64,000 bases of DNA from Limnochordia bacterium (GTDB taxonomy: Bacteria > Bacillota > Limnochordia > DTU080), in NCBI GenBank assembly GCA_050951545.1, contig JBMNJG010000004.1, forward strand, positions 125,406-189,405. The letters are read 5' to 3'. The notes under the pieces are model-generated. The model made no database searches, was not told the origin of the DNA, and was given only the letters and a program-made list of their open reading frames with translations. Made by a program: the position numbers and the translations under genes. This document shows positions 2,640-15,797 of the stretch, one piece after another; the stretch's first letter is position 1, and every line of letters starts with the position of its first letter.

Positions 2640-3710
2640 CTACGATGCAATGTAGACGATGCTGACCACTTCTGAGCGGTTGCTCTCTTGGCCGCCCTGG
2701 TCAACAGCAGTGACAACCACCTCGAGAACCCTGCCCGCGCCCAGTTGTTTGGTCGGATGGGTGTAGAGCCTTGTCCCTGCGTCGACTTCGTGTACCAGGC
2801 CGAATTTGTCGAGCGGATCTTGCCGCAGATAGATACGGTATCCTTCGAGGTCACCCTCTGCATCTGGTACTTCAGGCCAGCTGATGTGCAGGCCGTCGCC
2901 TGTGATCGCTAGTTCCACATTGGTGGGGGCGGGTGGCGGATTGTCAATATTGCCGATGACCACGCACTCGCCAGTTACAGGATCCCACTGCAGAGAGGTT
3001 GTGCGTCCGGGCAAGATGCTTACTGTGTCCCAGTGGCTTTCATAGATCCGATCCTTGGCATAGAAGGAGTTGCTATACAGGGCGATGCTGTAGTCGTAGG
3101 TACCAGCTGGCAGCATCTTCGTCGCTGTCAGTGTACCGTCTGGCTCTTCCGTCATCGAGGTATAGCCACCTGGGTTAATGTAGAGGCGACCTTTCTGTGC
3201 TGCATGTAGTTGCGGATGAGCTTCTGGGTTCACAGTGACAGTAAGATAGCCTGGCAGAGGCCGTAGCACTAGCTCAAGCGTGGCGGTGTTGTTGGGCAAG
3301 ATGCTGACATCGCCTTCGGCTTCATAGACTGCTTCGTCAGTGTCATCACAGACGCGCAGGGCTACGTGCCACACGCCAGGAAGCAAGTCCCCGACGGTCG
3401 CTGAGGCTTGAGAATCTACCACAGGAACTTGCTGTGTGCGCTGCCTGCCATCTTTGCTTACAATGAGAGTGACCGCAGAGGCATCGGGGGATAGGTCGGG
3501 AATGGAAGACAAGTTGGCGGCAATCATGAGACGACCGGAAGCCTGTGAGTCTTCTTGGACATTACTCAGGCGGTTCACGCTTCGCATGGGCAGTAGACTG
3601 CACCCGCCAGCGAGTGCCGCTATTGCCACGACAGTTGCCGCTCTCCACACCAAGGAGCGCCATCGGCTTTTGGGTAGTTGCCCAGCTCGTAAGAGAGGAG
3701 ATGTGCTCAT
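2640..3710 (-). CDS. Putative lipoprotein with a C-terminal fibronectin-III-like domain
   Basis: The N-terminal signal peptide ends in the lipobox-like LAGGC. The C-terminus has PPPAPTNVELAITGDGLHISWPEV...YRIY (FN3-like). GGAGG RBS lies upstream. Confidence 0.5.
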   Translation of the reverse strand: MSTSPLLRAGQLPKSRWRSLVWRAATVVAIAALAGGCSLLPMRSVNRLSNVQEDSQASGRLMIAANLSSIPDLSPDASAVTLIVSKDGRQRTQQVPVVDSQASATVGDLLPGVWHVALRVCDDTDEAVYEAEGDVSILPNNTATLELVLRPLPGYLTVTVNPEAHPQLHAAQKGRLYINPGGYTSMTEEPDGTLTATKMLPAGTYDYSIALYSNSFYAKDRIYESHWDTVSILPGRTTSLQWDPVTGECVVIGNIDNPPPAPTNVELAITGDGLHISWPEVPDAEGDLEGYRIYLRQDPLDKFGLVHEVDAGTRLYTHPTKQLGAGRVLEVVVTAVDQGGQESNRSEVVSIVYIAS

Positions 3711-3966
3711 GTCCTTGGGCCTCCTATCTCCCTCCGGGTGGCCCGTATATCATAGCCTGTAAGCACCGGAGTACCAAACGCGCTAGGCACGCTTGTCGCA
3801 CCGTTTGGGCAGAACGGGCACCGGACGAGCCTTTGCCAGACTCGCTCGCACGCCCGATTCGCCTCCCAGCACAGCGGAGCGTCAGGAGTCATGGACAGAT
3901 AACTGCTTTTGCACTATGATGAGAAATGAAGCTGGAAAGCATGTTCGTTGCGGAAAGGGGAAGCGC

Positions 3967-5367
3967 ATGGCTAAGAGCCAGCTCGACCTCAGTTACGAGT
4001 ACAAGTATGGGTTTCGCGATGCGGAGAACTATGCCTTTAAGAGCCAGAAGGGCTTGAGCAAGGAGATCGTGGCTCAGATATCAGAGATGAAAGGCGAGCC
4101 AGCGTGGATGCGAGAACTGCGCCTGCGCGCCTACGAAATATTCGTGAGCAGACCCATGCCCACCTGGGGTGCCGATCTATCAGGGGTCGACTTCCAAGAC
4201 ATCTTCTACTACGTGCGGGCTAGCGAAAGGCCTGGTCAGACGTGGGATGAGGTTCCTACGGAAATCAAGAACACGTTTGATCGCCTCGGTATTCCCGAGG
4301 CTGAGCGCAAGTTTCTGGCAGGGGTTTCTGCTCAATATGAGTCAGAGGTGGTCTACCAGAGTATTCACAGCGATCTGAAGCGGCAGGGAGTCATCTTCTG
4401 TGATACGGACACGGCCCTGCGCGAGCATCCGGAGTTGTTCCGTGAGCACTTCGGTACAGTGGTACCACCTACCGACAACAAGTTCGCAGCGCTGAACTCT
4501 GCAGTATGGAGCGGCGGCAGCTTTATCTGGGTTCCGGAGGGGGTCAGCGTGGATATTCCATTGCAGGCTTACTTCCGTATCAATACGGAGAACATGGGGC
4601 AGTTCGAACGAACTTTGATCATATGCGAGCCTGGCAGTTTCGTGCACTACGTAGAAGGGTGCACTGCGCCTCAGTACTCATCAAGCTCGCTTCACAGTGC
4701 TGTCGTTGAGATCATCGTCAAAAAGGGTGCTCGTTGTCGTTACAGCACGATCCAGAACTGGTCCAAGAACGTCTACAACCTCGTTACTAAGCGCGCTCAC
4801 GCTCATGAAGAGGCGACTATGGAGTGGATTGACGGCAACCTAGGCAGTCTTGTCACCATGAAGTATCCCGCTGTCTACATGTTGGGGCGCGGCGCCAAGG
4901 CAGACATCCTTTCCATCGCTCTCGCTAGTGCTGAGCAGCAGCTAGATGCGGGTGCCAAGGTAGTACACGCAGCTCCAGATACCACCTCCACGGTCGTCTC
5001 CAAGTCGATCAGCGTTGCAGGCGGGCATACCACCTATCGGGGACTCGTGCACATCGCGGGCAATGCGCAAGGCAGTAGAACCAAGGTCAACTGCGATACC
5101 CTGATTTTTGATGAAACGTCGAAATCAGACACGATTCCGCGCATCCAGGTACACAGCGACGATGTGACGATGGAGCATGAGGCTACAGTGTCAAAGGTAA
5201 GCGAGGAGCAGCTATTCTATCTCCAGAGCAGGGGCTTGAGCGAAGAGCAGGCTACCATGATGATCGTGATGGGTTTCATCGAACCATTCGCCAAGGAGCT
5301 GCCCATGGAGTATGCAGTAGAGCTCAACCGTCTCATTCAACTCGAGATGGAAGGTTCGGTGGGCTGA
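3967..5367 (+). CDS. sufB: Fe-S cluster assembly protein SufB
   Basis: Opens [18 protein letters not shown]... and is SufB-like throughout. The start was reset to ATG 3967 (the track ORF begins at 3793). Confidence 0.85.
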
Positions 5368-5389: not shown

Positions 5390-6484
5390 TTGCGCAGGTG
5401 GGGTACAAAGCTGTTCCTGGCACTATCGGTTCTTGTTTTTGCCCTTGATCTCTTTCTGCGTGGTGCCCTTCTGGAGTGGGGTGCTAAGTCTCCAGCGATC
5501 TGGGCAGGGGAGTACCATCGGCTGTTCAGCGCCACTTTCTTGCACGCTGATCTTCGTCATCTTCTGTTTAACATGTATGCTCTGTTTGTGTTCGGCAGTG
5601 TTGTGGAGAACCTCGTAGGCTCCGTTCGGTTCTGCATAGTATTCCTGCTGGGAGGGGCTGCAGGTTACGTAGCTAGTCTACTCGTGCAGCCCCAGTCGTT
5701 GGCTGTCGGAGCCTCCGCAGCCATTTTTGGTCTCATTGGCTATACAGTACATTTTCGCCTGCGGCGGTTGCCCAAGCGATACATGCGTATCGATACTGAG
5801 TTGCTTCAGATTCTGGGACTCAATCTTCTCATTGGTCTCCTAGTGCCGCGCATCGATCAGATCGCGCATGTAGGGGGCTTCTTGGGTGGGGCCTTGGCTG
5901 GTTCGCTGGTCGGGCTACCCAGCCCGGAGGGCCAGAGAAGCCCGACCAGCATTGAGAGGGCTATGGGCCTGCTGCCATTTGCCCTCATGGCAGCATTGGT
6001 GCTCAGCCCAGAGTGGGTCTTGACTACAACGCGGGCCATTTCGCCAGATGTCGGGGCGTATGTAGATCGTCGCTATGGTCCGTATATCCAGCCTCTGCGA
6101 GCCGATGCACAGATACTGATGTGGATCTACAGCGACGGGCGTGAGGGGGGTTGGCAGCCAGTGGACAAGGTGTTGCAGATTGATACGCGGCGGCCCGCAC
6201 AACTAGCTTTATTCTGGCGGTGGGAAAAGGGCCGCGGCGCGACCACGGCGGGGTTCCCCTACGTTGTCCATTGGGAACGTCTGGACCCCAGCGGGCAGGT
6301 AACGGCTTATCATATGGAGACGGGCACCGCCTATGCACCGGATCCGGACCCCACTCTGATCTATGCCAGGAGCAGCATGCCAGTTGCCATTGGGCGCTGG
6401 CAGGTGCGACTCGTGGTCGATGGTCGTGAGGTTTGGAGGCAGCGCTGTGATGTGGTGGAGGAAGGGAGAAGAGCAGAAGGATGA
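5390..6484 (+). CDS. Rhomboid-family intramembrane serine protease with a long C-terminal extracytoplasmic extension
   Basis: GASAAIFGL (GxSG) and the HVGGFLGGALAG histidine-bearing TM segment are present. Likely TTG start with GGGGAGG RBS. Confidence 0.7.
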   Translation: MRRWGTKLFLALSVLVFALDLFLRGALLEWGAKSPAIWAGEYHRLFSATFLHADLRHLLFNMYALFVFGSVVENLVGSVRFCIVFLLGGAAGYVASLLVQPQSLAVGASAAIFGLIGYTVHFRLRRLPKRYMRIDTELLQILGLNLLIGLLVPRIDQIAHVGGFLGGALAGSLVGLPSPEGQRSPTSIERAMGLLPFALMAALVLSPEWVLTTTRAISPDVGAYVDRRYGPYIQPLRADAQILMWIYSDGREGGWQPVDKVLQIDTRRPAQLALFWRWEKGRGATTAGFPYVVHWERLDPSGQVTAYHMETGTAYAPDPDPTLIYARSSMPVAIGRWQVRLVVDGREVWRQRCDVVEEGRRAEG

Positions 6485-7329
6485 GTCAAGTGGTCTATTT
6501 GAACGGATCGTTTGTGCCCTATGCAGAAGCAGTAGTTCCCATAGAGGATCGCGGTTTTGTCTTCGCGGATGGCGTCTACGAAGCGGTTCGCTTCTACGGA
6601 GGGAAGCCTTTTGCGTTGGATGAGCATCTCGCTCGCTTGGAGCGTAGTGCGGCAGCTATCGACCTCGAGCTACCTGCTGTGGAAGAGCTTGCCATGGCCA
6701 CTCGCGAGACAGTTGTGCGCAACAGATGCTCAGACGCTGTTGTCTATCTGCAGGTGACACGAGGTAGCGCTCCCCGCAAACATGAGTTTCCCGTACCGAG
6801 CACTACCCCCACTGTCTTCATGATCGCTCGTGAGGTTGCTCGCCCTGATGCCAAGCGGCTGGCTGCAGGCGTAGCCTGTATCACGGTTCCAGACATACGT
6901 TGGCATCGGTGCAACATCAAGTCGATTGCTCTGCTGCCGAATGTGCTCGCTAAGCAACAGGCGGCCGAGGCTGGTGCGGCTGAGGCGGTTTTAGTGCGTG
7001 ACGGAGTCGTGACTGAGGGGGGGAGCTCCAATTTCTTCCTCGTCCGCGATAGCTGCCTGTTCACACATCCGGCTGATGAGCATATCCTCGCGGGGATCAC
7101 CCGCGGTATCGTGCTTTCCTTGGCTCGCGAGCTGCGGATCGAGGTACGAGAAGAGAAGTTCGGTCTTTCAGAAGTGGAAACGGCCAATGAGGCCTTTATT
7201 TCCAGTACGGGCATTGAGATCTTGCCTGTCACGACCATAGATGACAGGCGTGTGGGATGCGGGCTTCCGGGCCCCGTGACTATGCGCCTTTGGCAAGCAT
7301 ACGATGCACGAATTGCTCAGCTGTCATAG
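6481..7329 (+). CDS. Class IV aminotransferase (D-amino-acid or branched-chain aminotransferase family)
   Basis: Opens MSQVVYLNGSFVPYAEAVVPIEDRGFVFADGVYEAVRFYGG, typical of fold-type IV PLP enzymes. ATGA overlap with the upstream gene. Confidence 0.72.
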   Translation: MSQVVYLNGSFVPYAEAVVPIEDRGFVFADGVYEAVRFYGGKPFALDEHLARLERSAAAIDLELPAVEELAMATRETVVRNRCSDAVVYLQVTRGSAPRKHEFPVPSTTPTVFMIAREVARPDAKRLAAGVACITVPDIRWHRCNIKSIALLPNVLAKQQAAEAGAAEAVLVRDGVVTEGGSSNFFLVRDSCLFTHPADEHILAGITRGIVLSLARELRIEVREEKFGLSEVETANEAFISSTGIEILPVTTIDDRRVGCGLPGPVTMRLWQAYDARIAQLS

Positions 7330-7391
7330 ATCACAGGGGGCGAGCTCGTATGAGACTCGCCCCACAGTCGCTCCTCATAACACAGTCGACG

Positions 7392-8231
7392 TCAGTGCGT
7401 GAGTTGCAGCCTGAGGCTCAGATCAAGGACGGGCGCTGAGTGTGTAAGCCAGCCCATCGAGATAATATCAACGCCCGTGGCAGCCACCGTGGCGATGTGC
7501 TCGATTCGGATGTTTCCGGAGGCTTCAACGAGGGCTCGGCGGTCGATCCTGATGACAGCTTCGCGCATGGTCTCGGGATCCATGTTGTCCAACATGATGG
7601 TGTCTACGCGGGCTGCCAGTGCCTCATCCACCTGAGCAAGGGTCTCCACCTCGACTTCGATCTTCACCAAATGGCCAATTCGCTCGCGTACTCGTCGGAC
7701 TGCTTCGCTGATACCGCCTGCTACGGCCAGATGGTTGTCCTTGATCAGCACTGCATCGTCGAGCCCGAGACGGTGGTTGAAGCCACCGCCCACGCGCACC
7801 GCGTATTTCTCAAGGGCTCGTAGGCCTGGGGTGGTCTTACGTGTGTCTACGATGCGGGTGGCATAGGGGGCAACGGCCTCTACTGCCAATGCCGTTGCAC
7901 TAGCGATACCAGAGAGGCGCTGGAGGAAATTCAGGGCCACGCGCTCGCCCAAAAGAACGCTCGCCGCTGGGCCCCGCAGGTGAAGCACTGTATCTCCGGG
8001 CTTCACGTCGGTGCCATCCGGAGCGTCGACGGTCATCTCCACGTTGGGTTCCAGCAGTTGAAAGGTCAGCATAGCTACTTCAATGCCAGCGATTCGTCCA
8101 GCCGCTTTGGCGACGATCTTGCCTCTTGCTTCGCTGCTCGATGGCACAATCGCTTCGGTAGTTAGATCGCCGTATCCGATGTCCTCATGAAGGCTACGGC
8201 GGACCGTTTCTTCAAGCCAGATGGGATTCAC
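7392..8231 (-). CDS. nadC: Nicotinate-nucleotide pyrophosphorylase (quinolinate phosphoribosyltransferase)
   Basis: Full-length similarity pattern to NadC. Sits immediately downstream of nadB on the same strand. Confidence 0.85.
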   Translation of the reverse strand: MNPIWLEETVRRSLHEDIGYGDLTTEAIVPSSSEARGKIVAKAAGRIAGIEVAMLTFQLLEPNVEMTVDAPDGTDVKPGDTVLHLRGPAASVLLGERVALNFLQRLSGIASATALAVEAVAPYATRIVDTRKTTPGLRALEKYAVRVGGGFNHRLGLDDAVLIKDNHLAVAGGISEAVRRVRERIGHLVKIEVEVETLAQVDEALAARVDTIMLDNMDPETMREAVIRIDRRALVEASGNIRIEHIATVAATGVDIISMGWLTHSAPVLDLSLRLQLTH

Positions 8232-8263
8232 GTGCTTGCTCCTTTGCAGTATCTTTCCTCCGT

Positions 8264-9862
8264 TTACGATAAAGGCGAGGCATGCTCCAAAGGACCATCC
8301 GTGAACGAGATAACAAACACCCCGTCACGGTTGGTCGCGACACGCCGTTGCGCCCACCATGTCTGTTCAGAAGGGAAGTCCTTTCGGTAGTGGCCTCCTC
8401 GGCTCTCCTCGCGGGTAGCGGCTGCGTTGACGATCGCTTCTGCCACCTGCAGCATATTACATGCTGGATGCGTATGCGCAGCGTCTGTTGACGCGAGAAG
8501 AGCGAGCTCTTCTTTCGCCTTGGTAAGGCCGGGGGAACTGCGTTCAATTCCGGCCCTGTCCCACATAAGCTCCTGTAGGCGCTGGACGAGCTGATCGCTT
8601 TCGGGGGCTTGCGAGGGTGGCGAAGGCTGGGACATAGGACCAGCGGGCCTAGCCTTGGCACTTACGTGTGGAGTCAGAGGAGGCATGCCTTCTATCGCTG
8701 ACGCTACGCGTGCCGCGAAGACCATCCCTTCCAGGAGTGAGTTGCTGGCCAGGCGGTTAGCGCCATGAACTCCAGTGCACGCAACTTCACCGCAGGCGAA
8801 GAGCCCGGGCACTGCCGTGGCTCCTTCGGTATCGGTCTGCACCCCTCCCATGATGAAGTGAGCAGCAGGGGCTACTGGTATCAGCTCGTGCCGCGGATCG
8901 ATCCCTCGCTCACTGCACAGACCGAAGATAGTAGGAAAGCGAGTGGCGAAGCGTTCGCCCATATGCGTAGCGTCAAGATAGACTGCGCTGCCTCGCTGCA
9001 TCTGCTCGAAAATGGCGCGGGCGACCACATCCCGTGGCGCCAGCTCTTGCCAGGGATGAATGGCGGACATGAAACGCTGGCCCTGTGCATTGAGTAGACG
9101 GGCGCCCTCGCCTCGTACAGCTTCGGAAATCAGAGGCATCGGGTTGGCATCTGTGGCTAGTGCCGTAGGGTGAAACTGCACGAACTCCATGTCTAGCAGT
9201 CGGGCTCCCGCTCTGATAGCCATGGCCTGACCATCACCAGTGGCCACAGTGGGATTGGTCGTATAGCGGTACAGCTGCCCGCAACCGCCTGAGGCCAGTA
9301 CCGTGGCTCGGGCAAGACACCAGGAAAGCTCTCCGGACTCCGCGAGCAAGGCAGCACCAACACAGCGACCGCCACTGACGAGCAACTCAAGAGCCAGGCA
9401 TCGCTCAACAATCGTCAGGTTGGGTGTGCGTCTAGCGTGGTCAGCCAGTGACTCTGTGAGTTCGGCGCCTGTGGCATCGCCTCGGGCGTGAACAATGCGT
9501 CGATGGCTGTGTGCAGCTTCCCTGCCCAAGACAAGCTCCCCTGATGGCGAACGATCAAAATGGGTTCCCAGAGATATCAGGTCAAGTATGCGCTGGGGAC
9601 CTTCGGTCACCAACACGGCCACCGCTTCCTCTAGACAAAGACCAGCGCCAGCCTGCAACGTATCATAGAGGTGCGCCTGTGGGGAATCCGACTCGCTGAT
9701 GGCGGCAGCGATACCACCCTGAGCGTACCATGTGTTGCTCTCAAGCAGCCGGCCTTTGGTGACGAGGGTCACCGAACCATGTGCTGCGGCTCGGATGGCC
9801 GTGTAGAGACCAGCTACACCACTACCGATAATAAGGAAATCAGTTTTCCGATGCTCTGTCAT
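8264..9862 (-). CDS. nadB: L-aspartate oxidase
   Basis: N-terminal FAD-binding DFLIIGSGVAGLYTAIRAA. Succinate dehydrogenase/fumarate reductase flavoprotein-like throughout. Confidence 0.88.
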   Translation of the reverse strand: MTEHRKTDFLIIGSGVAGLYTAIRAAAHGSVTLVTKGRLLESNTWYAQGGIAAAISESDSPQAHLYDTLQAGAGLCLEEAVAVLVTEGPQRILDLISLGTHFDRSPSGELVLGREAAHSHRRIVHARGDATGAELTESLADHARRTPNLTIVERCLALELLVSGGRCVGAALLAESGELSWCLARATVLASGGCGQLYRYTTNPTVATGDGQAMAIRAGARLLDMEFVQFHPTALATDANPMPLISEAVRGEGARLLNAQGQRFMSAIHPWQELAPRDVVARAIFEQMQRGSAVYLDATHMGERFATRFPTIFGLCSERGIDPRHELIPVAPAAHFIMGGVQTDTEGATAVPGLFACGEVACTGVHGANRLASNSLLEGMVFAARVASAIEGMPPLTPHVSAKARPAGPMSQPSPPSQAPESDQLVQRLQELMWDRAGIERSSPGLTKAKEELALLASTDAAHTHPACNMLQVAEAIVNAAATREESRGGHYRKDFPSEQTWWAQRRVATNRDGVFVISFTDGPLEHASPLS

Positions 9863-9957
9863 GCCGCTAGAATCAGTCCTATCTAAAGGGAGCGCGAATG
9901 GCGAGCTGTCTAGGGCGACGGGCCGGGGTGTGTGCCGCGGCCCATCGTATGCTGATG

Positions 9958-11007
9958 CTAGAGATTAGCGCAGATCAGGTCGCCGATTTCGCTCGTAGAG
10001 TATCCCATGCGGCCCGCCGCCATGCTGTCTAGCATGGGGCAGACCTTCGCTATGGCCTGCTCAACGGCTGTCCCTGCTTCGCTGTTGCCCAGCGCGTCCA
10101 GCATCATCGAGACCGCGGAAATGGCCGCCAATGGGTTGATCACATTCCTGCCTGTGTACTTCGGCGCGGAGCCACCAATGGGCTCGAACATCGATACACC
10201 TTCAGGGTTGATGTTGCCACCTGCGGCGATGCCCATGCCTCCCTGAATGATTGCCCCAAGATCCGTAATGATATCGCCGAACATGTTATCCGTGACAATG
10301 CAGTCGAACCACTCGGGGTTTTTCACCATCCACATGACGGTGGCGTCTACGTGAGCGTAATCGCGTTGGATGTCGGGGTACTCCGTAGAGCCCAGTTCGT
10401 GAAAAGTCCGTTCCCACAGGTCAAAGGCAAAGGTGAGTACATTAGTCTTGCCGCATAGGGTGAGCTTCCGCTGTCTGTTGCGCTTGCGGGCGAGCTCAAA
10501 GGCGTAGCGCAGGCAACGCTCAACACCTCGCCGTGTGTTCACAGACTCCTGTATGGCCACCTCATCGGGTGTTCCGCGCCGTAGAAATCCACCTGCACCA
10601 GTGTAGAGACCTTCGGTATTTTCGCGGACGACCATGAAGTCGATCTCAGCGGGACCTTTGTCTTTTAGGGGGGTCTCTACGCCTGGGTAGAGCTTTACAG
10701 GACGCAGGTTGATGTACTGGTCCAACTCAAAACGGAGGCGCAGCAAAATCCCCTTTTCCAAGACACCAGGCTTAACCTCTGGGTGCCCGATGGCACCAAG
10801 ATAGATGGCATCAAACTGCCGCAACTCGTCCACCGCTGAGTCAGGAAGAACTTCGCCGGTACGTAGGTAGCGTTCGCCGCCAAAATCGTAGGTCACCGTT
10901 TCGTAGCGGAAGCCGTACTTGGCAGCCACCGCTTCGAGTACTTTCAATCCCTCGCGAACCACTTCCGGGCCGGTTCCGTCGCCCCCAATAACTGCGATCC
11001 TGTACAT
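9958..11007 (-). CDS. Isocitrate/isopropylmalate dehydrogenase family protein (LeuB/tartrate dehydrogenase-like)
   Basis: Opens [17 protein letters not shown]..., with [10 protein letters not shown] and ENTEGLYTG motifs. 349 aa. Confidence 0.75.
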
Positions 11008-11119: not shown

Positions 11120-12166
11120 CTACGCAAGCCAACGGCGCATGAACGGCCATATGCCCGCCTTGTAGTATCGGTGACCACCCTCGCCAGTGTAGAGCTCACA
11201 GCGCTCGCCCACACCAGCTGCCGTATACGCTTCTTTCACCCTCTCGAATGCAGCCTGTGTAGCTTCATAGGGGAAGATGGGGTCTGTGCGGCCAGCTACG
11301 GCCAAAAAGGCGCGAGGGGCAGTGAGGCTGGCCACGTCATACATCTCGGCAACGGCCAACAGGCCTGGCACGTAGTTGCATTCGCAGTGGCGTATAGAAC
11401 CGATAGAGTGCTCGAACGTACAGAAATAAGAGGATGGAGCGCTAACCGTGATTCGCTCGTCACAGGCGCCAGCGAACAGGGAGACGGTACCGCCACCCGA
11501 GTTTCCTGTGACAGCGACCCGCGAAGTGTCAATCTCAGGGCGCGTGGTCGCGTAATCGATCAAACGCATCACATCCCAGACACGCTCACCAATCAAGGTT
11601 CTGCCAAACATCATGGCGTGCATTTGCATTGTGCGACAGGAGTTGTTCGCATCCTTGTCGATCTCAGGTTGGCGGCGCAGCCCCGCGAAACCTCGCATGT
11701 CAGGGGCGATAGCCACATAGCCTTCGCGCACAGCCTGCAAGGCGACATCACGTTCACCAGCTTCTAGGTCTTTGCGCTCAGCTTCAGTCTCCCACATCCC
11801 AACGTACGTCTTTTTCGCCGCTTTTCCGTGACCGTGGGGAGTAATGACGAGCGGAAGGGCTCCGTCTTGTGTTTTGGGGCGCAGCAGATAGAAGGGCACC
11901 ATAAAGCCCGGCTCCGTCTCTAGTGTCCACTCTTCGCGGAGATGATCGTCCATCTCCTCAGTCCCTATTTGCCGGGCTACAGGGGCATTGCTGCAACGAG
12001 CAGAGATTCTGTTGAGCCCCAGGAGTTTGTGCAGATACGGTCGGAAATCGCGCTGCCAGGCCTCGAATTCCGCTTTCGTCTTGGCGCGGCAGGCGAAAGG
12101 ACGGTAGCTCTCCGACGCGAGTACGTGTACATAGTTATCCGGTGTGAGCTGCAAGGTTTCGGTCAT
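11120..12166 (-). CDS. Alpha/beta hydrolase (esterase/dienelactone-hydrolase-like)
   Basis: GNSGGG nucleophile elbow. Start reset to ATG 12166 (MTETLQL) with GGAGG RBS. The track's N-terminal extension looks non-coding. Confidence 0.6.
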   Translation of the reverse strand: MTETLQLTPDNYVHVLASESYRPFACRAKTKAEFEAWQRDFRPYLHKLLGLNRISARCSNAPVARQIGTEEMDDHLREEWTLETEPGFMVPFYLLRPKTQDGALPLVITPHGHGKAAKKTYVGMWETEAERKDLEAGERDVALQAVREGYVAIAPDMRGFAGLRRQPEIDKDANNSCRTMQMHAMMFGRTLIGERVWDVMRLIDYATTRPEIDTSRVAVTGNSGGGTVSLFAGACDERITVSAPSSYFCTFEHSIGSIRHCECNYVPGLLAVAEMYDVASLTAPRAFLAVAGRTDPIFPYEATQAAFERVKEAYTAAGVGERCELYTGEGGHRYYKAGIWPFMRRWLA

Positions 12167-12306
12167 ATAGCCCACGCCTCCCTTTCTAAGGAATGGCTTG
12201 ATACCAGAATGGGGTTCTAGTCCAGATGTCGGGATCCTTCCACTCGGCGCAGGAGAAAGGCGTCTTTCCAGGAAATCTGTCGGTGTTTCTCGAGATGCGG
12301 TAGGAT

Positions 12307-14256
12307 GTGAAAGGGGAGCGTCGCTTGGCTCAGGTAGGTTCTGATGCGGTCGTGGCACGCAAGCGAGGGCGCCGCGGACGCGTGGCAGCGCTTGTGGGAG
12401 CATGGTTGGGGCTCGTGGTCTGGGCAGCGGCTAGTTACGCGCCTTTGGATCAGCTAGGCGTGGAACTCTATCGACCGTATTTCCTCCCCTGTGCTACTGT
12501 GCTATCGCTGTGGCTGCCCCTAAGCCGGGCAATTGATTGGGTGCGCACCCGTCGCGTAGAAAGCGGTGCAGTTTACCTGCTCTTGGCCGTCGGTTCGGTT
12601 CTGGCCGGGAGGTGGTCGGATGCGGTGCTTATTCTCAGTGTTGGGACGTCAGTGTCTGCACTCCGTGCCTCATTATGCGAGCGGGCTAGCCAGCCTGTTG
12701 AGATGTGGCAAGAGGTTTTGGATGCCGCTCAGGCTGCAGCGCAGACCTCCAGCCAAGTCACGGATGACGGTGGCCTCGCCACGGTGGTTGTCCCGACAGA
12801 CACGGTGGTCCCATATGATGGTTTCGTCTTGGGCGACGGGGCGTGGGTGGCCTCCTTCTGGGCAGAGTCTCCCACGGTCAGCCTAGAGCCCGAAGACCCA
12901 GTCTTTGCGGGTGATATCAACCTAGGTGATCCACTGAGTCTCGTGGTCGCTCGTAGCGGAGCTGACACGGTGCTCTCTCGCACGGTGGCCATGGGGCAAG
13001 CTGCTCTATGTCAGGGTGAGGGGGCGAATGTGCTGCTCTCTGCACTCAACAGGTGGTCCTTGGTGTGTACCATAGCAGCCGTGGTGATGGCCGTGGGTCT
13101 CCCCGTGCTGTGGGGCGCCTCCGTCAAAAGGGTATTGGTTAGAAGCATGAGTCTCGTGGCGCTAGCGATCCCTGGGGCTTGGTCTGTAGCTGCTGAACTG
13201 CCGCATGTCGCAGCAGTAGGGGCTGCTTTGCGCAGAGGCGTGATTCCTATGTACCAATCGGTTCTTAGTCGAGTTGCTCGGTTGCGAATGCTCGTGGTCG
13301 TGAATGTGACGACGATTACCAGTCGCCAGGCACTGGTCGTCGACGTACTGCCCCTGAAGCCGCAGGCGTGCGCCCCTGATGAACTGCTAACTGTGGCAGC
13401 CGCAGTAGAGACTGCGGCCAGGGCGAGCCATCCTTTTGCAAGAGCCATTCGCCGAGCATCTCGTAACGAAAAGCTTGCTTTGCCGCATGCTGAGCAAGGG
13501 AGGCAGTGGCCTGGTTTGGGTGTTTCAGCTCTCGTGGACGGGCACCATTGCCTAGTGGGCAATGAGGATCTGATGCGGCAACATGGGCTGAACACAGCTG
13601 CCTTAGATCATTTGGTCGCTCAGACGAGAGAGGATGCGTGTGTACCCATCTTCTGTGCCGCCGATGGCCACATCCTTGGCGTGCTAGGTATCAGCGAGAC
13701 GGAGTGTCAAGCGTGGCCGCGCACAAGTGCTCGACTGGAGAAACTCGGAGTGAAATCACTACTGCTCAGCAGTAGTGATTCGGACAGGCAGCAGCGTACT
13801 GCGTGGTTGCCCGCAAACAGCTGGGAAGTGACGCTGCTAGGTGGTCAGGAGCTGTCTACACTACGAGCTTGGGCAGGGCCTGGAGCCGTCATCGGTGTGG
13901 CTGCCGACGTTGACAGCGAACCTACGATGCTTCAGCAAGCTGATCTGGGCATCGGGCTAGGACCGATAGCGCTTCTGGGCGATGAAGGCCAGCTGGCGCT
14001 ACCCAGACGCAATCTTGGTGACCTTCCCTGGCTTATCATGCAGGCGAGGCGTTTGCGGAGGAGGGCTGTCGTGATCGGTCTTGCTGCAGTGCTTTCGCGC
14101 CTAGCGCTGGCAGTGATGGTATTGCGCGGCCACTTCGAGACTCTCCAAGTGGTGCTGTTCGATGGGGCGGCGGCCGTGATACTCACAGGGGCCGCTTGGC
14201 GTCTACTGGGACGTCGATCGCCCAGCATGCCTCGGCCTTCGGCAGCCAGCAAGTAG
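12307..14256 (+). CDS. Degenerate (pseudo-enzyme) P1B-type ATPase homolog; catalytic motifs lost
   Basis: Co-linear with heavy-metal P-type ATPases: TM6 CPC replaced by AIP, TGES by TVSL, DKTGT by NVTTIT, HP present as SHPFARAI, VDGxxxxVGN retained, TGDN by SSSD, GDGxND by ADVDSE. GTG start; start uncertain. Confidence 0.6.
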   Translation: MKGERRLAQVGSDAVVARKRGRRGRVAALVGAWLGLVVWAAASYAPLDQLGVELYRPYFLPCATVLSLWLPLSRAIDWVRTRRVESGAVYLLLAVGSVLAGRWSDAVLILSVGTSVSALRASLCERASQPVEMWQEVLDAAQAAAQTSSQVTDDGGLATVVVPTDTVVPYDGFVLGDGAWVASFWAESPTVSLEPEDPVFAGDINLGDPLSLVVARSGADTVLSRTVAMGQAALCQGEGANVLLSALNRWSLVCTIAAVVMAVGLPVLWGASVKRVLVRSMSLVALAIPGAWSVAAELPHVAAVGAALRRGVIPMYQSVLSRVARLRMLVVVNVTTITSRQALVVDVLPLKPQACAPDELLTVAAAVETAARASHPFARAIRRASRNEKLALPHAEQGRQWPGLGVSALVDGHHCLVGNEDLMRQHGLNTAALDHLVAQTREDACVPIFCAADGHILGVLGISETECQAWPRTSARLEKLGVKSLLLSSSDSDRQQRTAWLPANSWEVTLLGGQELSTLRAWAGPGAVIGVAADVDSEPTMLQQADLGIGLGPIALLGDEGQLALPRRNLGDLPWLIMQARRLRRRAVVIGLAAVLSRLALAVMVLRGHFETLQVVLFDGAAAVILTGAAWRLLGRRSPSMPRPSAASK

Positions 14257-14318: not shown

Positions 14319-15797
14319 TCAGGCATGAGGCCCGCACAGGGTGATTGCCTTGCGAATGCGCTCGAGGCAGCTCTGACGGCCTAGAATCTCCATGCTCTCG
14401 ACGAGCGGCGGGCTAACCAAGCGCCCTGTGATGGCGATGCGCAAGGGCTGGAAAGCATCCCTGGCCTTGACTTCAAGCTGCTCAGCGACACCCCGCACAG
14501 CCGCCTCTAGGTCGGTGGGCTGCCAGGGCGTGTGTGACAGCTTCTCCTCTAGAGTCATGAGAACTCGTTTTGCCTTGGCTGTCAGGGCCTTCTTCACAGC
14601 TTTGGGGTCGTACTGCGGTGGGCAGAAAAAGAAATCGGTGATGGCGCCGATTTCTGACAGCACCTTGATGCGCTCTTGTGCTAAGGCGACCACTTTTTCT
14701 AACCGCTCTAGTTCGATACCTTCGGGAGGCCCAGATAGGTATCCCGCTTTCTGCAGAAAGGGGACACAGGCTTGAGTGAGCTCGTCGATTGGCATCGAGC
14801 GGATGTAGTAGCCGTTGAGCCATTCGAGCTTTGTCAGATCGAAAATCGAGGGCGCTCTTGTGACCCGGTCGAGGCTGAATTCGGCTATCATGCGTTCGCG
14901 GCTTATCTCTTCGTTGCCGTCGACTGGTGACCAGCCCATGAGGACCAGGAAATTCAGCAAAGCTTCGGGCAGGAAACCCTTGTCGCGGTAGTCTCCGACG
15001 AAACTATCGCCGTGGCGTTTGCTGAGTTTCGTACGATCTGAGCCCAGGATGTGACCTACGTGAGCGATAACAGGCGGCTCTGCCCCCAGGGCTTCGTAGA
15101 TCAGGATCTGCTGAGGCGTGTTGCTGATGTGTCCCTCGCCTCGGATGACATGGGTGATGCGCATCTCAATGTCGTCAACGGCCACGGCGAAGTTATAGGT
15201 AGGTACACCGTTGCTGCGCACAATGATCGGGTCGGACATGTCATCGGTAGGGGTCTGTATCTGTCCTCGTAAAATGTCTTCGAAGCAGACCACGCTGCCA
15301 TCGGGAACGCGAAAGCGGATGGTTGGCTGGCGTCCCTCTCGCTCCAGAGCGGCCCTTTGGGTTGCACTCAGATGCAGACAGCGGCGGCTGTACGTGTATC
15401 CCGCGCCCTTCTCTTGCGCCTGGGCTCTCTCGGTAGCAAGCTCTTCTGGCGTGCAGTAGCAGAAGTACGCGTGATCCGATTCGATCAGGCGCTTGGCATA
15501 GCGATCGTAGATGCCTAGCCGCTCCATCTGCCGGTAGGGTCCATAGGCACCGCCTATGTCGGGGCCTTCATCCCAAGTTAGGCCGAGCCAGCGCATCTCA
15601 TTGTAGATCACGCTTTCCCATTCAGGTTTGGATCGCTCTTGGTCGGTATCTTCAAACCGCAGAATAAAAACGCCATTCTGACTGCGGGCAAACAGCCAGT
15701 TGAAAAGCGCTGTATGCAGGTTGCCGACGTGGATGGGCCCCGTGGGAGAAGGTGCCATGCGCACGCGGACCTGTGTCTCCTGTGCCACTCGTATCAC
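14319..15797 (-). CDS. gltX: Glutamate--tRNA ligase
   Basis: HIGH-region APSPTGPIHVGNLHTALFNWLFAR, with FILRFEDTD and a KLSKR-type motif. Confidence 0.9.
   Translation of the reverse strand: MIRVAQETQVRVRMAPSPTGPIHVGNLHTALFNWLFARSQNGVFILRFEDTDQERSKPEWESVIYNEMRWLGLTWDEGPDIGGAYGPYRQMERLGIYDRYAKRLIESDHAYFCYCTPEELATERAQAQEKGAGYTYSRRCLHLSATQRAALEREGRQPTIRFRVPDGSVVCFEDILRGQIQTPTDDMSDPIIVRSNGVPTYNFAVAVDDIEMRITHVIRGEGHISNTPQQILIYEALGAEPPVIAHVGHILGSDRTKLSKRHGDSFVGDYRDKGFLPEALLNFLVLMGWSPVDGNEEISRERMIAEFSLDRVTRAPSIFDLTKLEWLNGYYIRSMPIDELTQACVPFLQKAGYLSGPPEGIELERLEKVVALAQERIKVLSEIGAITDFFFCPPQYDPKAVKKALTAKAKRVLMTLEEKLSHTPWQPTDLEAAVRGVAEQLEVKARDAFQPLRIAITGRLVSPPLVESMEILGRQSCLERIRKAITLCGPHA

Follow-up and report, generated by a model that had tools for sequence, protein, structure and literature searches.

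Pseudoenzymes such as the pseudokinases and the pseudophosphatases of the HAD and PTP folds keep the fold of their active relatives after losing catalytic residues, and in them selection persists, with constraint shifted to a binding surface. P-type ATPases are defined by their phosphoaspartate chemistry. The DKTGT motif that underlies it is kept in 99.8% of the known P-type ATPases, and the variants described, 22 of 9,634 sequences (0.23%), carry single-residue changes, were suggested to be "non-functional or highly specialized" and were not analysed further in that survey (Pedersen et al. 2014, PMC3896382). The gene considered here is an open reading frame (ORF) at 12307..14256 on the forward strand of a 64,000-nucleotide stretch of DNA from a Limnochordia bacterium (GenBank assembly GCA_050951545.1, contig JBMNJG010000004.1, positions 125,406 to 189,405), the whole of which we call the window. 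Its product is a catalytically dead descendant of the Zn/Cd-type P1B-2 pumps that is maintained by selection and represents the terminal stage of a decay; we consider it likely that it serves a non-pumping function, perhaps one of binding through its N-domain on a membrane anchor. Literature searches on P-type ATPases that are inactive or pseudoenzymes, on FUPA families, on ATPases of Limnochordia and on operons combining an ATPase with IscA returned nothing relevant beyond the survey cited above, and a term search of a 2023 review of open questions gave no relevant passage on inactive or pseudo members (PMC10654040). These searches agree with an earlier annotation of the window made from its sequence alone (the original prediction), which knew of no described bacterial family of this kind; the survey reports only single-residue DKTGT variants (PMC3896382).

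That the protein is a homolog of the P1B-type ATPases lies far beyond chance. The Pfam family E1-E2_ATPase (PF00122) matches it at 4e-10 (39.9 bits against a gathering cut-off of 28.1), and the NCBIfam model for heavy metal translocating P-type ATPases, TIGR01525, aligns at 1e-35 over residues 159-604. With 123.5 bits against a cut-off of 346.25 this match is nevertheless below threshold, as is that to TIGR01512 (89.7 against 313.5), and PF00702 (Hydrolase) gives no match in the protein even at E<=10. The best single-sequence match in a PDB search was Legionella CopA (3RFU, E=7.8e-24), and the alignments to CadA (7QBZ) and ZntA (4UMV) begin at about residue 64-90 and reach about residue 636. 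An AlphaFold2 model computed from an input alignment of 36 sequences (pLDDT 84.9, pTM 0.77) has eight transmembrane (TM) helices, a beta-rich A (actuator) domain, a Rossmann-like P-domain and an inserted N-domain; Foldseek finds CopA 7R0G to be its best match (2.9e-26), followed by ZntA 4UMW and CadA 7QBZ, with matches to the three proteins ranging from 1e-23 to 1e-26 over ~640-700 columns. HMMER, AlphaFold2 and Foldseek are thus in agreement with the original prediction of a full-length, co-linear P1B homolog with A-, P- and N-domains and TM helices. The co-linear arrangement of M1-M6 with the three domains is that of a P-type ATPase in the evolutionary and structural sense, and the clade of the window protein also has the HP dipeptide and, in the model, the extra helices MA and MB that bring a P1B protein to eight TM helices. 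By descent and fold the protein belongs to the P1B-2 branch; by a definition based on phosphoaspartate and the CPx motif it is not a P-type ATPase.

None of the catalytic motifs is intact. We took the motif registers from HMMER against 3RFU and from several MAFFT alignments, which give the same answer except at the TGD equivalent. The TGES position reads W185-A-E-S188, with the Glu and Ser kept and the Thr and Gly gone, and the CPC position reads I288-P-G290, in which the helix-breaking Pro of M4 is kept and both Cys are gone. The DKTGT position reads V332-N-V-T-T336, so that the nucleophile Asp is replaced by Val and an Asn sits at the Lys position; no Asp or Glu occurs in this motif under either alignment register. 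The TGD position corresponds to S488-S-(S)-D491 by HMMER and lies two residues later, at D493, in one MAFFT run, the PEDK position is G512-G-Q-E515, with the P-domain Lys changed to Glu, and the GDGxND position is A533-D-V-D-S-E538. The functional signature of a P-type ATPase, namely the DKTGT Asp, the TGE(S) loop and the TGD, Lys and GDGxND elements, is accordingly absent, and a CPx-type M4 motif (CPC, CPH or SPC) is replaced by IPG here and by VPG, LPG or LPS in the orthologs. Retained are E368, S374-HPFARAI with H375-P376, G403xG405, V417-G-N419 and the ADLGIGLG block at 545-552. At the P1B-2 site of M5 and M6, which we read from sequence only, the Asp is retained and the Lys has become Arg: D619 is the equivalent of ZntA D714 and R598 occupies the position of ZntA K693, and both are invariant in the decayed clade.

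Realignment by HMMER and MAFFT bears out the general claim of the original prediction that all catalytic motifs are degraded, its reading of GDGxND as ADVDSE, and its list of retained blocks (SHPFARAI, VGN and ADLGIGLG). It misplaced three motifs, however, by between one and four residues: TGES does not correspond to TVSL, CPC does not correspond to AIP, and the phosphorylated Asp was not replaced by the Asn of NVTTIT, since it aligns to V332. The further statement that every metal-binding motif is degraded is correct for CPC and slightly overstated for the M5/M6 site, where the Asp is kept and the Lys has given way to a conserved Arg. Recovery of a catalytic Asp or a CPC motif had been named as a possible refutation, and realignment recovers neither; mis-assigned motifs hiding such residues are ruled out by two alignment methods and both registers.

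The gene is kept by purifying selection, and we are therefore dealing with a pseudoenzyme and not a pseudogene. Its frame is open in all of the ~nine lineages found, which span 34-75% identity, and the identical or a near-identical protein is present in many independent assemblies. Nei-Gojobori dN/dS (the ratio of nonsynonymous to synonymous divergence) over four orthologs, the close ones at 63-75% identity, is 0.10-0.15 for the focal gene, compared with 0.07-0.08 for gltX and 0.03-0.06 for the flanking hydrolase, values that are approximate because dS approaches saturation in the deep comparisons. A neutral simulation was added for that reason, and at the divergence of the closest orthologs it left the frame open in 0/5000 replicates, with 11-23 stops expected. 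Within the close clade the protein evolves at nearly the rate of a housekeeping gene (75% identity as against 89% for gltX). The open frames, the dN/dS values and the simulation uphold the earlier view of an intact ORF, and the last two rule out a decaying pseudogene.

The family to which the protein belongs is real but rare, and it is confined to uncultured organisms. We searched 5.8 billion protein clusters with a word-indexed method, 1.84 billion representatives exhaustively with HMMER, and 241 million metagenome records. The word-indexed search returned only three close relatives, P0002 (75% identity), P0003 (63%) and P0004 (65%, a partial sequence from a Limnochordia metagenome-assembled genome, MAG), beyond which identity falls to canonical pumps at <=30%; a second such search with the clade alignment yielded zero new members. 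The degraded motifs are common to these three proteins, and their loci have the gene order Abhydrolase_7(-), focal gene(+), gltX(-). In the HMMER scan only nine proteins scored below 1e-30, including P0028, P0029 and P0030, which are 38-39% identical to the focal protein and likewise lack CPC, DKTGT, TGE, TGD, the Lys and GDGxND. The CPC positions of these three are LPG, LPG and LPS, respectively, the TGES loop is absent (WNPL in P0028, WDNQ in P0029), HP has become DP in P0028 and DG in P0029, and several members of the clade no longer have the first Gly of GxG. P0030 (565 residues, encoded at 3295-4992 of locus L027 and represented by at least eight near-identical sequences from independent assemblies) has undergone a clean deletion of the entire A-domain with the membrane, P and N parts kept, which shows that the A-domain is dispensable in this lineage. 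L038 (34%) and a few loci resembling that of P0003 came from the metagenome records, and among the genomes of a species-level collection only Limnochordia and uncultured Clostridia/Firmicutes MAGs contain the clade.

The position of the gene provides a view of how this state was reached. Just upstream of it in the window lie SufBD, Rhomboid, Aminotran_4, nadC(-), nadB(-) and Iso_dh(-), and this backbone recurs, in part or as a whole, at the loci of P0028, P0029, P0030, P0032, P0209 and P0059 and at L038 and L040. P0032, the best match outside the clade (27% identity), still has a detectable PF00702 domain and keeps TGE, HP, GxG and the Lys, and has SPS for CPC, SQTGI for DKTGT and GDDEED for GDGxND. 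A search with P0032 identified four more proteins, two of them (P0059 and P0209) in the full backbone and two (P0210 and P0212) on short contigs that hold only a three-gene cassette. P0059 is of the Cd/Zn type with every motif intact. P0209 departs from this only in a Gly for the Asp of DKTGT (D>G), a change of HP to HA and a Ser for the Asn of GDGxND, whereas P0210 has DKSGT, CPW and TAET, and P0212 has GKTGI, SPH and TGAA. In a bootstrapped neighbor-joining tree (618 columns, 200 replicates) the series of positional orthologs is monophyletic (bootstrap 99) and nests among the P1B-2 pumps of the Cd/Zn type. Its fully decayed members also form a single clade (bootstrap 100), which is set apart by a stem of 0.97 substitutions per site and is sister to P0032 (bootstrap 77); the intact P0059 is sister to P0209 with its D>G change (bootstrap 100). 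Given this topology, the nucleophile was lost at least twice independently. The housekeeping proteins nadB, nadC and Iso_dh are 52-89% identical between the same genome pairs, and the ratio of ATPase to nadB identity goes from 0.83 (intact versus D>G) to ~0.45 (intact versus fully decayed). The series places the focal gene at the end of a stepwise decay that took place at a single conserved locus in Limnochordia-like Firmicutes.

Several features of the series support a P1B-2 ancestry: the Lys or Arg of M5 together with the M6 Asp, the annotation of the nearest relatives as Cd/Zn exporters, and the nesting in the tree. The K/R plus Asp pattern narrows the original "CopA/ZntA-type" to a ZntA/CadA-type, and a CopA ancestry is ruled out in favour of Cd/Zn P1B-2 by the tree and the M5/M6 pattern. 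The M6 Asp is present in all members of the series except P0212, which has Glu, and the change of the M5 Lys to Arg is found only in the fully decayed clade.

All five intact or intermediate genes lie in the same cassette, between a gene for a two-helix membrane protein of 77-80 residues and one for an IscA/HesB-like protein of 117-119 residues, in a SufBD / FeS_assembly_P / Rieske neighbourhood. The two-helix protein has no Pfam match and is 58-77% identical between loci, and we found no literature on this cassette. In 4/5 cassettes the ATPase lacks the catalytic Asp and/or the CPC site. Neither partner is present at the fully decayed loci or anywhere in the 64-kb window, and in the window lineage gltX fills the position of the IscA-like gene. 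The cassette ATPases also carry an N-terminal HMA domain with a degenerate CxxC motif (CTES, CADG, CTDR or CADS), whereas the fully decayed clade has no HMA domain. The annotated start of P0059, the only fully intact ortholog, is probably wrong: in the stretch 9906-10001 of its locus, L031, an upstream ATG at 9906 opens a complete HMA domain. The first Cys of CxxC in this domain is a TGA codon (9967-9969, VAGMT-TGA-ADCAAQFE), which is either a nonsense mutation or a selenocysteine of a UxxC site; a search for a selenocysteine insertion sequence (SECIS) after the TGA gave no Rfam match and a hairpin that was not significant (z=-0.9). The ancestral state was a cassette of the small protein with two TM helices, the pump and the IscA/HesB-like iron-sulfur (Fe-S) carrier beside nadC-nadB-Iso_dh and SufBD. 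The nucleophile Asp and/or CPC were lost piecemeal, as seen in P0209, P0210, P0212 and P0032, and in one monophyletic clade none of the motifs survives, nor does the HMA domain or either partner of the cassette. The repeated loss of catalysis inside the cassette, next to an Fe-S carrier gene, suggests that the protein had an activity that did not depend on ATP turnover before the decay was complete.

The remaining constraint has moved to the N-domain. Within the close clade this domain has the lowest ratio of nonsynonymous to synonymous differences (pN/pS) of any region, 0.12-0.21, and the highest values, 0.27-0.41, are those of the former DKTGT segment and of M5-M6 (0.32-0.40 for the latter). 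When identity in the N-domain is divided by that of the whole protein, the clade gives 1.13 and 147 canonical P1B pairs give 0.89, and the corresponding figures for the DKTGT segment are 0.85 and 1.17. This pattern is the reverse of that in canonical P1B proteins, the DKTGT segment being the least conserved cytosolic segment in the clade. The N-domain has also gained clade-specific residues, namely K-P-Q-A-C355 (a two-residue insertion ending in C355), H413, C415, C445 and C450, and it contains 3-6 Cys in the clade, whereas canonical and intermediate forms have 0 there, apart from P0212 with 2. These new Cys and His residues suggest a thiophilic ligand. One attractive if speculative possibility, to which we give little weight, is that Cys355, His413, Cys415, Cys445 and Cys450 form a candidate thiolate-rich metal or Fe-S site in or beside the old adenine pocket, which would make the protein a membrane-anchored sensor or carrier for metals, redox state or Fe-S clusters. 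Such a role would have its roots in the association of the ancestral pump with the Suf locus and an IscA-like carrier of Fe-S.

Taken together, motif alignment, fold and selection bear out the earlier proposal of a non-pumping pseudo-ATPase that has kept its fold and lost the phosphorylation chemistry and the TM thiolate site. No residue is left that could accept the phosphate, so that formation of a phosphoenzyme, and with it an E1/E2 transport cycle, would be impossible; we regard a non-pumping but functional pseudoenzyme as very probable. Its most likely role, we infer, is that of a membrane-anchored binding or scaffold protein. The eight-helix membrane domain would act as an anchor, with the former ion site closed by a permanent R598-D619 pair that would replace the K693-D714 pair of ZntA, which we take to be a counter-ion pair (structures 4UMV and 4UMW). 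The selected activity would then sit in the cytosolic headpiece, chiefly the N-domain, which may bind a ligand (a thiophilic metal or cluster, possibly a nucleotide) or a protein partner at the membrane. Retention of nucleotide binding is plausible in the window clade, where all pocket residues are kept. A binding module of this kind on a locked anchor is, in this specific form, a tentative proposal that may well need to be replaced by another.

Several points weigh against this reading. The R598-D619 pair is predicted from alignment to ZntA. Retained ATP binding does not appear to be what the clade has in common, as HP has turned into DP in P0028 and into DG in P0029, and the absence of the first GxG Gly from several members weakens it further. 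The loci of the fully decayed clade share no conserved partner gene. As for selection, dS in the deep comparisons is close to saturation, and the only unsaturated comparison, with the 99%-identical strain L034, shows 3 synonymous and 4 nonsynonymous codon differences in the focal gene as against 11 and 2 in three neighbour genes pooled, a difference that is not significant (Fisher p=0.12). These counts hint at weaker constraint than in the housekeeping genes, and are too few to be informative.

The pseudo-ATPase could instead regulate or scaffold another protein of the same cell through headpiece-headpiece or membrane contacts; an active P1B pump and the machinery that handles Fe-S or metals are examples of such partners. 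This would resemble the regulation of active paralogs by pseudokinases. The ancestral cassette, in which the pump is combined with a small membrane protein and an IscA-like carrier amid SufBD, FeS_assembly_P and Rieske genes, the repeated loss of catalysis from a gene that was kept even inside the cassette, and an N-domain surface constraint that fits a protein interface are all consistent with such a role. The decayed clade has lost both cassette partners, however, with no IscA-like gene in the window, no conserved adjacent partner gene and no second P-type ATPase within the 64 kb, and to our knowledge heteromeric regulation among P1B ATPases is not established; we therefore think a partner role of this type unlikely, although it deserves to be kept in mind. 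The membrane domain itself offers the other obvious site of function, that of a passive conduit for metals or ions, either an ungated or a ligand-gated facilitator or channel that would use the Pro kink of M4, the Asp of M6 and the eight helices. In its favour, the 8-TM architecture is retained along with the invariant P289 and D619, and M3-M4 is about as constrained as the protein on average. Against it, aliphatic residues and Gly stand in for the two Cys ligands at the high-affinity site, and the Arg that has taken the place of the M5 Lys should keep D619 permanently neutralised. M5-M6 ranks among the regions under least constraint, and the strongest constraint falls on a cytosolic N-domain that a simple pore would not need. 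Of the roles put forward in the original prediction (channel, sensor or scaffold), the evidence leans away from a channel, which we consider improbable, and towards a binding or scaffold role.

It might also be argued that there is no function to explain, the gene being a relic that is open by chance, or an artefact of assembly or annotation. Compared with its syntenic housekeeping genes the protein does evolve about twice as fast (ATPase/nadB identity ratio 0.43-0.60), the L034 counts given above point the same way, and the family is rare, with a handful of lineages in the 5.8 billion clusters and 241 million metagenome records. The frame is nonetheless open in ~nine lineages, the neutral simulations at the divergence of the closest orthologs never kept it open, dN/dS is low, divergence within the close clade is near that of housekeeping genes, new residues have been fixed and conserved, and a near-identical protein recurs in many independent assemblies, all of which makes a relic or artefact very improbable. 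Hardly credible, finally, is an active ATPase with non-canonical chemistry, such as one using another acidic phosphoryl acceptor. An Asp does occur two positions downstream of the canonical site in P0028-P0030 (W-D-[VA]-T or A-D-R-T) and at the Lys position of DKTGT in P0004, and the adenine-pocket residues of the N-domain are kept in the window clade. The focal protein and its closest orthologs, however, have no Asp or Glu in the motif in either register. The P-domain has Glu in place of its Lys, Ser and Glu occupy the positions of the Asn and the final Asp of GDGxND, and TGD is without its Thr and Gly. The TGE loop is altered, the A-domain is deleted in P0030, and PF00702 is undetectable.

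Table 1. Coordinates of the focal gene, its regions and neighbours in the window, and of the cassette partner genes at related loci.
Feature	Coordinates	Strand	Remarks
ATPase-like ORF, catalytically dead P1B-2-derived membrane protein	12307..14256	+	ORF, homology, model
Arg-rich cytosolic N-terminus and helices MA, MB, M1, M2 (residues 1-147)	12307..12747	+	AlphaFold2 secondary structure; comparison of N-termini
A (actuator) domain (residues 148-221)	12748..12969	+	TGES equivalent at 12859-12870
M3-M4 (residues 222-312)	12970..13242	+	CPC equivalent I288-P289-G290 at 13168-13176
P-domain, first half (residues 313-345)	13243..13341	+	DKTGT equivalent at 13300-13314
N-domain (residues 346-468)	13342..13710	+	retains E368, H375-P376, G403xG405, G418-N419
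P-domain, second half (residues 469-570)	13711..14016	+	TGD, PEDK and GDGxND equivalents; ADLGIGLG 545-552
M5-M6 and C-terminus (residues 571-649)	14017..14253	+	R598, D619
nadC	7392-8231	-	conserved anchor
nadB	8264-9862	-	conserved anchor
Iso_dh	9958-11007	-	conserved anchor
Abhydrolase_7 / CE15-like esterase, 348 residues, divergent neighbour	11120..12166	-	syntenic only in close Limnochordia orthologs
gltX, convergent downstream neighbour	14319..15797	-	syntenic in close orthologs
Cassette partners at L028 (small two-helix; IscA/HesB-like)	7693-7935; 10375-10728		
Cassette partners at L030 (small two-helix; IscA/HesB-like)	9725-9958; 12234-12590		
Cassette partners at L031 (small two-helix; IscA/HesB-like)	9646-9879; 12237-12593		
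Cassette partners at L032 and L033 (small two-helix; IscA/HesB-like)			

The focal ORF opens with GTG, encodes 649 residues and has zero internal stops. Its true start is probably the TTG at 12325, because the Shine-Dalgarno-like AAAGGGGAG at 12310-12318 precedes this codon at a suitable spacing, and no such site lies upstream of the GTG at 12307. The TTG start gives 643 residues, which is the length of the NCBI copy of the protein (MGI6609531.1). A scan for promoters and terminators at the gene gave no signal above chance. PGAP labels the protein "hypothetical protein" because it falls below the TIGR01525 and TIGR01512 cut-offs, whereas IMG labels it "cation transport ATPase". Antisense ORFs of 87-194 residues overlap the gene on the reverse strand between 12500 and 14250 (for example 13011-13595); they are typical of DNA with ~60% G+C, and nothing suggests that they are coding.

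The gene faces gltX, as the original prediction had noted. On its other side, a mechanically called ORF of 427 residues at 11120-12403 (-) overlaps the start of the focal gene, and the orthologs of this ORF begin at the internal ATG at 12166. The resulting esterase resembles glucuronoyl esterase, AXE1 and DLH hydrolases, and its gene appears to have been inserted between Iso_dh and the focal gene only in the close Limnochordia lineage. Since its synteny is limited to the close Limnochordia orthologs, the Abhydrolase_7 protein is probably not a functional partner, and neither it nor gltX can be a general one, as the relatives at 34-39% identity have other neighbours. At two related loci, L029 and L038, the genes for the large subunit of ribonucleotide reductase (6322-10089 and 6269-8173, respectively) carry intein/LAGLIDADG homing-endonuclease domains, which are unrelated to the finding, and an NrdR/ATP-cone gene lies adjacent in L029 and L031.

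A conserved lineage of P-type ATPase descent that has dispensed with the whole catalytic apparatus, and in which selection maintains the fold of eight helices and three domains, shows that this scaffold can do something other than pump. The presence of intact, partly decayed and fully decayed orthologs at one locus constitutes a rare natural time series of the birth of a pseudoenzyme, which reveals the order in which motifs were lost, when the partners disappeared, where the constraint moved and which residues were gained. What is new here is this series of positional orthologs, together with the relocation of constraint to an N-domain enriched in Cys and His. Should the candidate N-domain metal or Fe-S site be real, this would be the first described family of pseudo-P-type ATPases with a new function and living intermediates. 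On the practical side, the labels "cation transport ATPase" and "Cd2+/Zn2+-exporting ATPase" assigned by some pipelines would mislead inventories of metal resistance in the communities of anaerobic digesters.

The closest described systems are the Zn2+/Cd2+/Pb2+ exporters ZntA and CadA of the P1B-2 group. With them the focal protein shares helices MA, MB and M1-M6, the order of the A-, P- and N-domains, the M4 Pro, the M6 Asp, HP, GxG, VGN and the ADxGIAMG block. Missing from it are the Asp nucleophile, the thiolates of CPC, the TGE Thr and Gly, the Lys of the P-domain, the Mg-phosphate ligands of TGD and GDGxND, and the HMA domain; it further differs in having Arg for the M5 Lys, in falling below the PF00702 and TIGR01525 thresholds, and in its inverted pattern of conservation. 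The Cu+ pump CopA (P1B-1; 3RFU and 7R0G) has the same overall fold and provides the best PDB and Foldseek matches, but its M5/M6 signatures YN and MxxSS are absent from the focal protein, which has the K/R and Asp pattern of P1B-2.

Loss of the nucleophile is not restricted to this locus. Among the top 150 representatives, the P1B homologs P0068 (NKTGI/SPQ), P0160 (NKRGT/NPY) and P0165 (AKTGT/CPH) lack the Asp and appear to be independent CopA/CopB-like cases, and P0113 (DKTRT) and P0169 (DKTNT) keep it. The three Asp-less proteins indicate that nucleophile loss recurs in P1B pumps, and none of them is as thoroughly remodelled. Among pseudoenzymes, many pseudokinases have defined allosteric or scaffold roles; with pseudoenzymes in general the focal protein shares a kept fold, lost catalysis, purifying selection and relocated constraint. 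The DKTGT variants catalogued by Pedersen et al. involve single changes, whereas in the lineage described here all catalytic motifs are gone, and the lineage is monophyletic, under selection and traceable through a series of intermediates at one locus.

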